DNA of 12,452 nucleotides from a virus: UHGV virus genome UHGV-2080389; one strand, 5' to 3'. Shown here one piece after another: positions 6,534-9,378 of this stretch. Position numbers and translations under genes: made by a program. The stretch's first letter is position 1, and each line of letters begins with the position of its first letter. A model generated the notes under the pieces. The model was not told the DNA's origin. It searched no databases and saw nothing but the letters and a program-made list of their open reading frames with translations.

Positions 6534-7022
6534 TCAGAATGGACACGGCCCAAGTAAATAACGCTGATTTAATACTTCAGTCTTTGCCGCATTTAAAAAT
6601 ACGCGAACACCTTCACGATCTCCCTTCTGGCGATACATTAACGCCTGCTGCGTGTACATGCGTCTCCGGTAGCCTGCCGCGTAAATGGCTACGTTTGGAA
6701 GACATACACCAGTTTCTGGTTGCTTATGTCCAAACTCATTCGCGTACACAATGGCCGCTCGCTCCAGATTGCGTCTGTATTCTTTCTGTTGCCAGATCAC
6801 GTCCTGTGCCATGAACTTAATTGGCTTAGCGTCTTCTATGCGCTCAGGCGTTTCGTGAGTACCTTTAGCCTGAATCTGCGCTCTGCTTAGAGTAGGGCGG
6901 TGTAATACTTCTGAACTTATTGCTTCTTCGCGGGCCAGCACGCCGTTAGCTAATGCCTTTGCCTTTAAACGCTCACGACGACGAGAACGTGAATTGCCTT
7001 TGAACTGAGTTCTGCGTGTCAT
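6534..7022 (-). CDS. N-like transcription antitermination protein with a P22-type arginine-rich motif
   Basis: ATG at 7020-7022 with AGGAGG 6 nt upstream. N-terminal GNSRSRRRERLKAKALA aligns with the P22 N arginine-rich motif (GNAKTRRHERRRKLAIER) and lambda N (QTRRRERRAEKQAQW). It is the first gene downstream of PL/nutL. At 162 aa it is longer than lambda N. Confidence 0.55.
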   Translation of the reverse strand: MTRRTQFKGNSRSRRRERLKAKALANGVLAREEAISSEVLHRPTLSRAQIQAKGTHETPERIEDAKPIKFMAQDVIWQQKEYRRNLERAAIVYANEFGHKQPETGVCLPNVAIYAAGYRRRMYTQQALMYRQKGDREGVRVFLNAAKTEVLNQRYLLGPCPF

Positions 7023-7187
7023 ATAGACCTCCTGATGAACTTTGGTGGTGTGGTAGGTGGGAGACCTATTTCGACCTGTTTCGGCCTACTTCAATTCGGC
7101 AATAGTCCCGCAGGCCTCGCCGCTTTACGTGCGACATATTCCCGTCCATGAACCCTTCACCACACCCCAAAGTTCACTTTGGTTATT

Positions 7188-7202
7188 GCGCTTTGTCAGC
7201 GC
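7188..7202 (-). promoter_or_regulatory. nutL boxB hairpin, P22 type (transcript reads GCGCUGACAAAGCGC: 5-bp stem, GACAA loop)
   Basis: Plus strand gcgctttgtcagcgc. Located in the PL leader between the PL start (about 7264) and the N-like start (7022). The 15-mer matches the P22 boxB-left RNA as I recall it. Confidence 0.55.
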
Positions 7203-7270
7203 CGTAGATTCATATTTGAATCGTTGTATATTCACCGCCCTGGTGAGTAGTGCGTCCTGCTGATGTGTTT

Positions 7271-7333
7271 AGTATCACCGCCAGTGGTATTTATGTCAAC
7301 ACCGCTAGAGATAATTTATCACCGCAGATGGTT
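7271..7333 (-). promoter_or_regulatory. Lambda-type OL1-OL2-OL3 operators with PL (-10 GATACT = plus 7271-7276; -35 TTGACA = plus 7294-7299; 17-bp spacer)
   Basis: OL1 at 7273-7289 (TATCACCGCCAGTGGTA), OL2 at 7297-7313 (one mismatch to lambda OL2), OL3 at 7317-7333 (TATCACCGCAGATGGTT). These are the lambda 17-mers from memory. Confidence 0.85.
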
Positions 7334-7418
7334 ATCTGTATGTTTTTTATATGAATTTATTTTTTGCAGGGGTGCATTGTTTGGTAGGTGAGAGATCTGA
7401 ACTGCTATGTTTAGTGAG

Positions 7419-7448
7419 TTGTATCTATTTATTTTCAAATAGATACAA
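7419..7448. repeat. Perfect 12-bp inverted repeat (TTGTATCTATTT-ATTTTC-AAATAGATACAA)
   Basis: Read directly from the sequence, between OL3 and the tIMM-like terminator. Confidence 0.5.
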
Positions 7449-7485
7449 TTGGTTATGTGTTCTTGGGTGAGGGGGATCGTGAGGC

Positions 7486-7511
7486 AAAGAAAACCCGGCT
7501 CTGTGGCCGGG
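7486..7511 (-). terminator. Intrinsic terminator ending the leftward cI/rex-slot transcript (tIMM-like)
   Basis: Minus strand reads CCCGGC-CACAGA-GCCGGG followed by UUUUCUUUG, immediately after the last rex-slot stop at 7520-7522. Confidence 0.6.
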
Positions 7512-7519
7512 AATAACAT

Positions 7520-7898
7520 TTAGGAATCAAGGTCAGGTAGCATGATTTTCTCAATCAACGTCAATGCCCTTTGGTCTCGTTCAGCAAAATATTTAGGAGC
7601 GTACTGAGGCAGCCACACTTCGTTGAAGTATTGTTTGAAATCTGCAATATTCGTTTGGGTATAGACGTACCGGGAATGTCCGGCCATCTGGGTACTCATG
7701 GTTATATGTTGGGAATGTCTTCGGCTCAACCCCCCGGTTGTCACGGAGCCATTGCGAGAAAACCCTACCCTCTGAAATATCAGGGACCATTTTTTCTGGC
7801 AGCGTATATCCGGCCTGTTCAAGTGGCGCAACCAAGTTAAACGTCAGTTCATTAAGCATAGAAAAGTGCGTATGAGGAACTCTGCCTCGGTTTGTCAT
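7520..7898 (-). pseudogene. Disrupted C-terminal portion of the KilA-N-domain gene (two ORF fragments in different frames)
   Basis: ORF 7593..7898 is in the same frame as the KilA-N ORF, separated from it by one TAA (7938-7940) with 13 sense codons between that TAA and the next ATG. ORF 7520..7831 is in the +1 frame. Protein-like sequence runs in the first frame up to about ...FPVRLYPNEY and continues in the second from about ...NIADFKQYFNEVWLPQYAPKYFAERDQ, so the switch is near 7640-7665. Confidence 0.4.
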
Positions 7899-7937
7899 AT
7901 ACCGCTTAAGGTGGATAGGGAGTTCGGCAGGCGCTCT

Positions 7938-8279
7938 TTAACCTGACATCCACTCACGCACCCATCTCGATACTTGCACTGCAAATTTTGGAGATAGCCA
8001 CTGAGCTAAATTAATTGCGATGTCTGGATGAACCCAAGTCCCTTGATTCTCTGCTCTTCCGCCTTTAAATGATTGAATTAACTCCGATATGGGAATCCCC
8101 ATATCGCGTGATAATTCATCAAAAAAATCTTGTGTTGTTTTTAGTCGTGTATAGTCAGCAAGTAGCTTCCCCGCAGACTTGCACATCGCGGTGGCATTGA
8201 TGTATCCGTCTTTGGTGCGAAGATGGATGACTTCTCCATCAACTTCTCTAGCGATTAATGCAAGTTGAAATTGTGTCAT
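7938..8279 (-). CDS. KilA-N (APSES-like) DNA-binding domain protein in the rexAB position
   Basis: 113-aa ORF with ATG at 8277-8279 and AGGA 7 nt upstream, 31 nt downstream of the cI stop. Signature GTWVHPDIAINLAQWLSPKFAVQVSRWV is typical of the KilA-N domain. Confidence 0.7.
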   Translation of the reverse strand: MTQFQLALIAREVDGEVIHLRTKDGYINATAMCKSAGKLLADYTRLKTTQDFFDELSRDMGIPISELIQSFKGGRAENQGTWVHPDIAINLAQWLSPKFAVQVSRWVREWMSG

Positions 8280-8310
8280 AAATCATCCTATTACGTGAAA
8301 AATAAAACAA

Positions 8311-9024
8311 TCACCCAAACGTCTCTTCTGGCCACTGGCTGGCGATAACTTTCCCCACAACGGAACAACTCTCATTGCATGGGATCATTGGATATTGCGG
8401 GTTTAGTGGTTGTAGAAACACCTGACCGCTATCCCTGATTAGTTTCTTGAAGGTAAACTCATCACCTCCAAGTCTGGCTATGCAGAAATCACCTGGCTCA
8501 ACAGCCTGCTCAGGGTCAACCAGAATTAACATTCCGTCAGGAAAGCTTGGCTTGTAGCCTGTTGGTGCGGTCATGGAATTACCTTCAACCTCAAGCCAGA
8601 ATGCAGAATCACTGGCTTTTTTGGTTGTGCTTACCCATTTCTCCGCATCGCCTTTGGTAAAGGTTCTAAGCTCAGGCGAGAACATCCCGGCTTGAACATG
8701 AGAAAAAACAGGGTACTCATACTCACTTCTAAGTGACGGCTGCATACTAACCGCTTCATACATCTCGTAGATTTCTCTGGCGATTGAAGGGCTAAATTCT
8801 TCAACGCTAACGTTGAGAATTTTTGCAAGCAATGCGGCGTTATAAGCATTTAATGCATTGATGCCATTAAATAAAGCACCAACACCTGACTGCCCCATCC
8901 CCATCTTGTCTGCGACAGATTCCTGGGATAAGCCAAGCTCATTTTTCTTTTTTTCATAAATAGCTTTAAGGCGACGTGCGTCCTCAAGCTGCTCTTGTGT
9001 TAACGGTTTCTTTTTTGCGCTCAT
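8311..9024 (-). CDS. cI: Lambda CI repressor (237 aa, near-identical to phage lambda cI)
   Basis: [70 protein letters not shown]...[22 protein letters not shown] differs from my recollection of lambda CI at about four positions. The ATG abuts OR3, consistent with a leaderless PRM transcript. Confidence 0.95.
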
Positions 9025-9034
9025 GCATTAAATC

Positions 9035-9100
9035 TATCACCGCAAGGGATAAACTTCTAACACCGTGCGTGTTGACTATTTTACCTCTAGCGGTGATAAT
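9035..9100. promoter_or_regulatory. Lambda OR3-OR2-OR1 with divergent PRM/PR (PR -35 TTGACT 9072-9077, -10 GATAAT 9095-9100)
   Basis: OR3 at 9035-9051 (TATCACCGCAAGGGATA), OR2 at 9058-9074 (TAACACCGTGCGTGTTG), OR1 at 9082-9098 (one mismatch to lambda OR1). The PR spacer is 17 bp. Confidence 0.9.
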
Positions 9101-9124
9101 GGTTGCCTGTACTAAGGAGGTTGT

Positions 9125-9325
9125 ATGGAACAACGCATAACCCTGAAAGATTATGCAATACGCTTTGGGCAAACCAAGACGGCTAAAGATCTCGGCGTAT
9201 ATCAAAGCGCGATTAACAAGGCCATTCATGCAGGCCGAAAGATTTTTTTAACTATAAACGCTGATGGAAGCGTTTATGCGGAAGAAATAAAGCCCTTCCC
9301 AAGTAACAAAAAAACAACTGCATAA
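9125..9325 (+). CDS. cro: Cro repressor (lambda type, 66 aa)
   Basis: [66 protein letters not shown] differs from lambda Cro at two positions from memory. AGGAGG RBS upstream. Confidence 0.95.
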
Positions 9326-9333
9326 GTAACACC

Positions 9334-9378
9334 GCTCTTTTCACAATGGACATTCGTCCTACGTCGCTGACAAAGCGA
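9334..9378 (+). promoter_or_regulatory. nutR: boxA-like CGCTCTTTT (9334-9342) and P22-type boxB hairpin UCGCUGACAAAGCGA (9364-9378)
   Basis: Located between the cro stop and cII. The boxB has the same GACAA loop and 5-bp stem architecture as nutL. A small hairpin (ATGCGT-TTCC-ACGCAT, 9409-9424) follows and may be part of a tR1-like region. Confidence 0.55.

Follow-up and report, generated by a model that had tools for sequence, protein, structure and literature searches.

The wild phages mEp234 and HK106, which carry lambda immunity, were reportedly described in 2007 (Degnan et al. 2007, Mol Microbiol 64:232). In HK97 (NC_002167), mEp234 (EF120460), HK106 (EF120461) and PhiR5_2 (PV340546), an N gene and nutL of the H-19B type are followed by the lambda PL/OL-tIMM segment, a variable 'moron' slot, lambda cI-OR-cro, and a nutR boxB and cII that are again of the H-19B type. 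In the laboratory hybrid lambda imm434, the swap takes the repressor, the operators and cro only, and the N gene and nut sites of the recipient stay in place. HK97 and lambda are homoimmune (PMC6550527). According to a passage in PMC8585504, which cites Degnan 2007, the interval between cI and N is a known mosaic hotspot whose slot is variable among imm-lambda phages. The N/nut systems of H-19B and 933W have been studied experimentally (Neely & Friedman 1998, 2000; Muteeb et al. 2012, PMC3526286). In PMC3526286, antitermination by H-19B N was shown at H-19B nutR/tR1, a nutR with two hairpins.

The DNA analyzed here (the window, 12,452 nucleotides of the UHGV virus genome UHGV-2080389) very likely contains the early control region of a lambdoid E. 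coli prophage that resembles HK97 and mEp234, in which an immunity module of lambda specificity, made up of PL/OL, tIMM, cI, PRM/OR/PR and cro, is placed between N/nutL and nutR/cII/pRE arms of the H-19B/933W/HK97 type. HK97, mEp234, HK106 and PhiR5_2 share its layout, junctions and OR1 variant at 96-98% nucleotide identity, the match to PhiR5_2 has 95% coverage and 98% identity, and the nut, operator and promoter annotation of EF120460 falls at positions that match the window. The N protein, PL leader, nut boxBs, spacer hairpins and cII of H-19B and 933W are near-identical to those of the window, whereas both phages have their own cI, cro and operators, unlike the lambda type found here. The window differs from the HK97 group by an in-frame N'-'arf fusion, a deletion of kil and cIII, a broken BstA-like gene, a private OL2 change and a deletion from O to ylcG. 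The first-pass annotation of this DNA had seen in it a natural analogue of laboratory lambda-imm hybrids. The hybrid is neither fresh nor unusual: HK97, mEp234, HK106 and PhiR5_2 all contain this joined arrangement, and it is annotated in EF120460. The mosaic is real, but it is already published and common in E. coli: an H-19B-type nutL joined to lambda PL/OL was detected in 97 of 5,426 complete E. coli genomes (about 2%). The combination of lambda immunity with an H-19B-type N is most likely old and inherited as a unit rather than made in the window genome.

The window was compared with lambda by nucleotide alignment and a 20-bp identity profile. Lambda-like DNA comprised two blocks only, one from PL/OL to tIMM (7232-7511; 92% identical to lambda 35550-35824) and one containing cI, OR and cro (8310-9339; 96% identical to lambda 37226-38255), and nucleotide alignment revealed no similarity to lambda at 7512-8309. 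All six lambda operators are colinear within these blocks. Four are identical to their lambda counterparts, namely OL1 (7273-7289) and OL3 (7317-7333) on the minus strand and OR3 (9035-9051) and OR2 (9058-9074) on the plus strand, and the other two have one change each. The C-to-T change in OL2 (7297-7313, minus strand) is private to the window copy, and the G-to-A variant of OR1 (9082-9098, plus strand) is also found in HK97, mEp234 and PhiR5_2. A consensus promoter scan identified a lambda-type PL in the region 7271..7333 of the minus strand (-35 TTGACA, -10 GATACT) and PR at 9072-9100 on the plus strand. The cI gene (8311..9024, minus strand) encodes a lambda-type repressor of 237 aa with four substitutions relative to lambda CI (233/237 identical) and Pfam matches to HTH_3 and Peptidase_S24. 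The product of cro (9125..9325, plus strand; Pfam Cro) is identical to lambda Cro at 64 of 66 residues, with the changes M12I and V55I. A terminator scan detected a tIMM-like intrinsic terminator (7494..7511, minus strand) that ends the left lambda-like block and is named Timm in the EF120460 annotation. The near-lambda character of OL1/OL3, OR2/OR3, cI and cro, as noted in the first pass, was verified. A lambda-type CI would be expected to bind OL and OR and to shut off PL and PR, and the prophage remnant probably still confers lambda immunity.

Exchange points close to the PL start and the cro stop had been predicted, together with a lambda repressor/operator set that forms a module apart from N and the nut sites. 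Block alignment, operator comparison and junctions bore out both predictions, with one break a short way into the PL leader and the other closely following cro. On the left, lambda identity begins about 20-33 nt downstream of the PL transcription start (+1 at 7264), and on the right, it stops 14 bp past the cro stop codon, within the nutR boxA (9333-9341, plus strand; CGCUCUUUU). The left junction block (7249..7266, minus strand) contains the first ~16 nt of the PL transcript, AUCAGCAGGACGCACU, which leader sequences and pairwise junction alignments showed to be common to lambda, H-19B and the window; P22 also has the first 13 nt, AUCAGCAGGACGC. The right junction block (9318..9341, plus strand) consists of the last cro codons and the nutR boxA and is common to lambda and H-19B up to 9339, the boxA of H-19B nutR being CGCUAUUUU. 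The lambda block ends within short sequences common to many lambdoid phages, on the left in the ~20-30 nt with which the PL leader starts and on the right in the nutR boxA, and the immunity cassette is therefore predicted to lack an N-specific determinant and to be pairable with any N/nut allele. The exchange boundaries of lambda imm434 would be of the same type; that hybrid joins lambda N to a foreign immunity, whereas the window joins lambda immunity to a foreign N and is probably of natural origin. For the modular mosaicism of lambdoid phages, this suggests a cassette that recombines at the PL transcript start and at the cro end with boxA, independently of the N/nut and cII/pRE alleles. A lambda-like cI consequently does not imply lambda N, nut sites, cII or rexAB in genome annotation, and neither lambda-like antitermination nor lambda-like Nus-factor requirements should be assumed for an 'imm-lambda' prophage.

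Two of the earlier observations concerned the nut sites, a P22 boxB 15-mer after PL and a GACAA-loop boxB in nutR, and both were confirmed. The 15-mer GCGCTGACAAAGCGC is present as an exact copy at 7188-7202 on the minus strand, where it makes up the nutL boxB, GCGCUGACAAAGCGC. In the PL transcript, this element spans +63 to +77, and its fold has a stem of 5 bp and a GACAA loop (-8.5 kcal/mol). The identical 15-mer is found in the annotated nutL of P22 (P22 30816-30830) and in HK97, mEp234 and H-19B. The nutR boxB, UCGCUGACAAAGCGA (TCGCTGACAAAGCGA), at 9364..9378 on the plus strand folds in the same way, with 5 bp in the stem and GACAA in the loop, and the EF120460 annotation contains both boxBs at matching positions. 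Simple arithmetic gives an expectation of about 2e-5 exact 15-mer occurrences in 12.4 kb on both strands. Allowing up to two mismatches, 0.25 copies of the 13-mer boxB core were expected and three were found, two of them exact and at the right place and strand. Each boxB is preceded by a spacer hairpin. At nutL, the hairpin GAUUCA-AAUA-UGAAUC (7207..7222, minus strand) lies directly upstream of boxB. Folding of the PL leader (95 nt, z = -2.6) gave this hairpin in the MFE structure as well as in the centroid structure, and H-19B has the same sequence with one compensated change. At nutR, folding identified the hairpin GGAC-AUUC-GUCC (9348..9359, plus strand), which is identical in H-19B nutR. 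A canonical nutL boxA is present in P22 and lambda, but a search of the minus strand from 7022 to 7264 gave no match to YGCTCTTTA within one mismatch. H-19B N is said to need neither boxA nor NusB, and a nutL without boxA would fit. A search of Rfam at gathering thresholds returned a tRNA-like match only and no nut or boxB family. The first-pass annotation had assigned N specificity to the flanks and not to the repressor and operators; this assignment appears to be right because the boxB hairpins are P22-like and not lambda-like. Upon derepression, the PL and PR transcripts would each carry a GACAA-loop boxB hairpin with a spacer hairpin before it, an H-19B-type N would bind the boxB hairpins via its arginine-rich motif, and N together with NusA would render RNA polymerase resistant to termination.

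The N-like open reading frame (6534..7022, minus strand) was identified by alignments, Pfam and PHROGs as an in-frame N'-'arf fusion of 162 aa. Residues 1 to ~119 (6666-7022) represent an antiterminator N of the H-19B/HK97 type, and residues ~119-162 (6534-6665) represent the C-terminus of an arf-like 'recombinase' gene, whose normal place is next to erf. The matching PHROGs families were phrog_271 (N-like) over residues 1-124 and phrog_1723 (recombinase) over residues 119-162, and the break point relative to mEp234 and HK97 is at 6665/6666. Over the retained part, 116 of 119 residues are identical to H-19B N, and N plus nutL show 99.5% identity to 933W and other Stx phages that bear other immunity regions. 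The fusion replaced the last eight residues found in H-19B N, so that KSKQLTAR is gone and LPNVAIYAAGYR is kept. Resemblance to P22 is limited to the arginine-rich motif, a C-terminal motif and boxB. The arginine-rich motif is 12-RSRRRER-18, and R3, S11, R15 and R18 match residues named in PMC3526286; in the alignment, the motif FKGNSRSRRRERLKAKA is placed against FAGNAKTRRHERRRKLA of P22. For the Pfam family PF25694 (N_peptide; cut-off 27.9 bits), scores of 45.4 for the window N, 57.8 for HK97 N, 152.2 for P22 gp24 and 16.4 for lambda N were obtained. BLASTP against gp24 was significant over 23 C-terminal residues only, and a global alignment of the window N, which belongs to a class of 127 aa, with gp24 showed about 37% identity. 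A P22-type arginine-rich motif had been claimed for this protein, which is correct for the likeness of the motif to P22, but the RRRER core is equally lambda-like and N itself is of the H-19B/HK97 type. The motif on its own was hence rejected as proof of a P22 type, and the case for such a type is built on the family to which N is assigned, on its C-terminal motif and on the cognate boxB. None of N, cII, erf and the BstA fragments had a match in NCBIfam.

These similarities raise the question of a direct lambda x P22 recombinant, in which lambda immunity was exchanged into a P22 backbone. Such an origin is very improbable, although it would account for the shared nutL boxB 15-mer, for an N within a Pfam family built around gp24, for the P22-like arginine-rich motif, for the F-x-G-N...RR-x-ER motif and the C-terminal LPxVA[LI]YAAGxR common to N and gp24, and for the P22-like DNA farther left (abc2 85%, erf 79%, int 70%). 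Searches with blastn (word size 7, E < 1e-3) gave no match to P22 in 6534-7231 or 9340-9460, and N, the PL leader and nutR are without P22 nucleotide similarity beyond boxB and the first 13 leader nt. The N proteins differ in class (127 aa versus 100 aa in P22) and in most of their sequence, the P22 nutR boxB (CCGCCGACAACGCGG) is unlike that of the window, and nutL lacks the P22 boxA and has an extra spacer hairpin. The flanks are instead 98-99.8% identical to H-19B, 933W, HK97 and PhiR5_2. The alignment to lambda and P22 that had been suggested for locating breakpoints delivered sharp lambda breaks but no P22 DNA similarity in N/nutL. Because alignment of the full P22 genome showed nothing there beyond boxB and the leader start, the 'P22 backbone' was rejected, and the P22-type flanks of the first-pass annotation were replaced by an H-19B/933W/HK97 module of N, nutL, nutR and cII. 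On these comparisons, the lambda x P22 recombinant seems largely refuted already.

Very improbable, too, is that the boxB identity with P22 reflects convergence or chance and that the window N has another RNA specificity. A boxB is only 15 nt long and the RRRER core is equally near lambda N, but the same exact 13-nt core is found in nutL and nutR alike, in each case on the strand that is transcribed and as far from PL and cro as expected, and N belongs to the Pfam family of gp24 and has its C-terminal motif. Lambda N Trp18 stacks on the boxB loop; at the aligned position, the window N has Asn and P22 gp24 has Glu, which also argues against this explanation. Contamination with a lambda vector or other laboratory DNA was rejected because the nucleotide sequence diverges from lambda by ~4%, HK97 has the same wild-type OR1 variant, and the element lies in a chromosomal prophage context.

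On the right, cII (9463..9759, plus strand) is the H-19B/HK97 allele (89/98 identical to H-19B CII), and a CII site, TTGC-N6-TTGC, was read from the sequence at 9472-9485 on the minus strand, with an equivalent annotated in EF120460; this would make pRE and cII part of the non-lambda flank. Between cI and tIMM, no rexA or rexB was found, and the slot without lambda similarity holds a pseudogene of the BstA family of abortive-infection genes (KilA-N + BstA_C; 7520..8279, minus strand). PhiR5_2 has the same BstA-like gene intact in its rex slot, and comparison with this 253-aa open reading frame showed that the window gene is interrupted by a stop codon (7940) and has lost 2 bp at ~7647. The intact homologue matched phrog_6287 BstA (E = 1.8e-82) and the PADLOC BstA model (E = 2.5e-20), and the KilA-N domain was matched by Pfam. 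The variable slot contains gp48/gp49 in HK97 and hicAB in mEp234.

Further lesions were observed outside the immunity module, and the window prophage is predicted to be a non-viable remnant. The window copy has lost kil and cIII, int is truncated to its last 107 codons (a PHROGs int fragment), and O is fused to ylcG beside Q, with a 56-aa O'-ylcG product and the order ylcG-quuD-porin; the O and Q fragments were recognized by Pfam. A run of 20 N at 10256-10275, in Q, indicates that the source assembly is imperfect, and errors of assembly might in principle account for part of this decay. Against this speaks the same layout in separate metagenome contigs: compared at the level of open reading frames only, they share a 113-aa KilA-N and a 55-aa BstA_C frame, the 162-aa N fusion and the 56-aa O'-ylcG frame. 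It is scarcely credible that the element is an intact, inducible HK97-like phage whose deletions and frameshifts are assembly errors, as the N run and a contig with the same N fusion that still has O-like, DnaB and NinB genes (L009) might suggest, given that at least 13 contigs encode the fusion (six such places, all with split KilA-N/BstA_C, come from different samples), that three contigs (L008, L010 and L011) repeat the O'-'ylcG-Q adjacency, and that only the last 107 codons of int are left.

The N'-'arf junction was absent from the 5,426 complete E. coli genomes, a 41-mer across it had no hit in genome_contigs, and the contigs that encode the fusion protein are mostly human-gut metagenome assemblies. 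There is a slim chance that the N(1-119)::Arf-like(14-56) chimera is more than debris, an antiterminator that has gained a new C-terminal domain and is tolerated or even functions. If so, the KSKQLTAR tail, which is conserved in the N proteins of H-19B, HK97 and P22, would be dispensable.

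By ORF and family scans, the window represents a lambdoid prophage's early region, in which the leftmost gene encodes a truncated tyrosine integrase (4741-5064, minus strand). It is followed by abc2, an SSB-like gene, erf, an N-like ORF (6534-7022, minus strand) and PL/OL. Further right lie a split KilA-N/BstA-like gene, cI, OR, cro and cII, and then a 53-aa ORF, an O fragment, the Q gene and a porin gene. Blastn was used to compare the window with lambda, P22, mEp234 (EF120460) and PhiR5_2 (PV340546). Similarity to lambda was confined to two blocks, 7232-7511 (lambda 35550-35824, 92%) and 8310-9339 (lambda 37226-38255, 96%), the left one ending in a tIMM-like terminator (7494-7511). 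As the first-pass annotation had described, this immunity region is nearly that of lambda: OL1, OL3, OR3 and OR2 carry no changes, OL2 and OR1 one apiece, CI four substitutions and Cro two. PL and PR were the only strong sigma-70 consensus matches in a scan of 6400-9900. The OR1 change (9082-9098) is a common, widespread wild allele. The C-to-T change in OL2 (7297-7313) sits at the equivalent operator position and is private: it recurs in two metagenome contigs (L008 and L009) and was absent from lambda, HK97, mEp234 and PhiR5_2 when these were compared. CI of the remnant is probably still expressed, and it would be active.

The junctions were as sharp as had been claimed. On the left, H-19B-type identity reaches to approximately 7266 and lambda-type identity begins at approximately 7242-7249; the block common to both is the PL transcript start, AUCAGCAGGACGCACU, of which the first 13 nt are also found in P22. 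On the right, H-19B-type sequence starts at 9318 and lambda identity stops at 9339, the common block comprising the final cro codons and boxA. The exchanged cassette is therefore limited to cI, cro and tIMM with the promoters and operators, whereas N, cII, the two boxB hairpins and the CII site of pRE (TTGC-N6-TTGC, 9472-9485) lie outside it.

The flanks had been called P22-type. P22-like DNA was found by blastn only to the left of N (abc2 85%, erf 79%, int 70%), and neither N nor the PL leader nor nutR showed nucleotide similarity to P22; alignment to lambda and P22 yielded the two lambda blocks with their breakpoints and no P22 DNA in the N/nut flanks. Up to approximately residue 118 the N ORF equals HK97 and mEp234 N, except for the conservative changes K99R and I113L, and it matches H-19B N at 116/119 positions. 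Its 12-RSRRRER-18 stretch and its R3, S11, R15 and R18 coincide exactly with those reported for H-19B N, for which N-boxB antitermination is taken from the literature (PMC3526286); the observations made here are of sequence identities, hairpins and family membership. The PL leader differs from H-19B by one base across its first ~100 nt, nutR is nearly identical to that of H-19B, including the spacer hairpin GGAC-AUUC-GUCC, and cII shares 89/98 residues. The N and nutL segment (6665-7231) shares 99.5% identity with 933W and many Stx1/Stx2 phages, whose immunity regions differ from that of the window, and ~87% with several Salmonella phages. A lambda-specificity immunity cassette between arms of an H-19B/933W/HK97-type N-nut and cII module is thus very probably the explanation of the window.

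N and boxB are genuinely, though distantly, related to those of P22. The Pfam PF25694 threshold was passed by window N, HK97 N and P22 gp24, whereas lambda N failed, and the three proteins have the motifs F-x-G-N...RR-x-ER and, C-terminally, LPxVA[LI]YAAGxR in common. The term P22-type is therefore right for protein family and boxB and wrong for the backbone. The reported boxB elements were confirmed: GCGCTGACAAAGCGC at 7188-7202 (minus strand) corresponds to +63 to +77 of the PL transcript (+1 at 7264) and also occurs inside the annotated nutL of P22, and TCGCTGACAAAGCGA lies in nutR at 9364-9378 (plus strand). Each folds into a 5-bp stem with a GACAA loop, and the 13-nt boxB core is far above chance frequency in the window. 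All factual statements of the first-pass annotation held in blastn, operator comparison, folding and core counts. The nutR boxA, CGCUCUUUU, is located at 9333-9341; in contrast, no recognisable boxA was found for nutL in 7022-7264 (minus strand). A small extra spacer hairpin is present in both sites, as described for H-19B, that of nutL being GAUUCA-AAUA-UGAAUC. A third near-match to the core with one mismatch, CGCAGACAAAGCG (12419-12431, minus strand), is remote from either nut site, lies upstream of the porin gene and is probably due to chance because 0.25 matches with up to two mismatches are expected.

The combination of lambda immunity with an H-19B-type N has been described before. Among phages, the whole arrangement was matched best by PhiR5_2 (95% coverage, 98.1%), mEp234, HK106 (EF120461) and HK97 (NC_002167). 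Annotations of the mEp234 immunity region (nutL boxB, pL, oL1-3, Timm, cI, oR1-3, cro, nutR boxA and boxB, pRE and cII) map onto the window feature positions. Degnan et al. 2007 reportedly found the immunity region of most imm-lambda isolates to be bordered by different N and CII alleles. A 311-bp probe spanning the H-19B-type nutL/lambda PL-OL junction was matched over its full length in 97 of the 5,426 complete E. coli genomes, O104:H4 strains included; lambda's own N-nutL-PL junction occurred in 374 of the same set, many being laboratory strains. The mEp234 and HK106 GenBank records (EF120460 and EF120461) belong to Degnan et al. 2007, and the cI-N interval is a mosaic hotspot according to a passage of PMC8585504 that cites this work; in a passage of PMC6550527, citing Juhala et al. 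2000, HK97 and lambda are homoimmune.

Several decay features distinguish this copy. Compared with mEp234 and HK97, sequence is deleted between N codon ~119 and codon ~14 of the arf-like 'recombinase' gene, the normal neighbour of erf. Lost with it are kil, cIII and adjacent genes, and the fusion reads as a 162-aa in-frame chimera with the C-terminal 43 residues of the arf-like protein (6534-6666, minus strand), in which N may be impaired. The junction was found in 0/5,426 complete E. coli genomes, and the exact protein is encoded on at least 13 contigs, the majority assembled from gut metagenomes (L008-L013); L009 retains O-like, DnaB and NinB genes. The slot of lambda rexAB is filled by an abortive-infection gene of the BstA family (KilA-N and BstA_C; 7520-8279, minus strand), which a nonsense mutation at 7940 and the loss of 2 bp near 7647 have inactivated; PhiR5_2 carries it intact (253 aa, 3856-4617; phrog_6287, E = 1.8e-82; PADLOC BstA). 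O is cut after ~40 codons and joined at ~10059 to ylcG-quuD-porin-essD DNA, which implies loss of most of O, P and the nin region. The resulting 56-aa ORF (9940-10110, plus strand) contains the N-terminal 33 positions of Pfam Phage_rep_O followed by ylcG-like DNA, and sits just upstream of the quuD-like Q gene. The integrase gene is cut to its C-terminal 107 codons. With the chimera, the broken BstA-family gene and the O and int losses, the element is a cryptic remnant.

The Q gene (10196-10581, plus strand) contains a 20-N run (10256-10275) across which the reading frames differ by 2; the run length is therefore nominal, or the run masks sequence, and is not a true length. Between Q and essD, an OmpC/NmpC-like porin gene (10771-11868, minus strand; 365 aa; Porin_1, E = 1e-156) has the same placement as in DLP12-type late regions. 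An Rfam tRNA match of 36 bits (4651-4723, plus strand), with no ARAGORN call, is tRNA-like only in its 3' portion, from anticodon arm through CCA, which resembles tRNA-Thr. The match lies between two integrase genes and fits the duplication of the 3' end of a tRNA at an att site. Left of the prophage is a separate integrative island (129-4494) encoding a P4-type integrase with an Arm-DNA-binding domain (3175-4494, minus strand), an AlpA-like HTH protein (2417-2638), a YagK/YfjJ (inovirus Gp2-like) protein (448-1068), a RecG-C-terminal-like fragment and two ORFs without family; it was at least 80% covered in only 8 of the 5,426 complete E. coli genomes.
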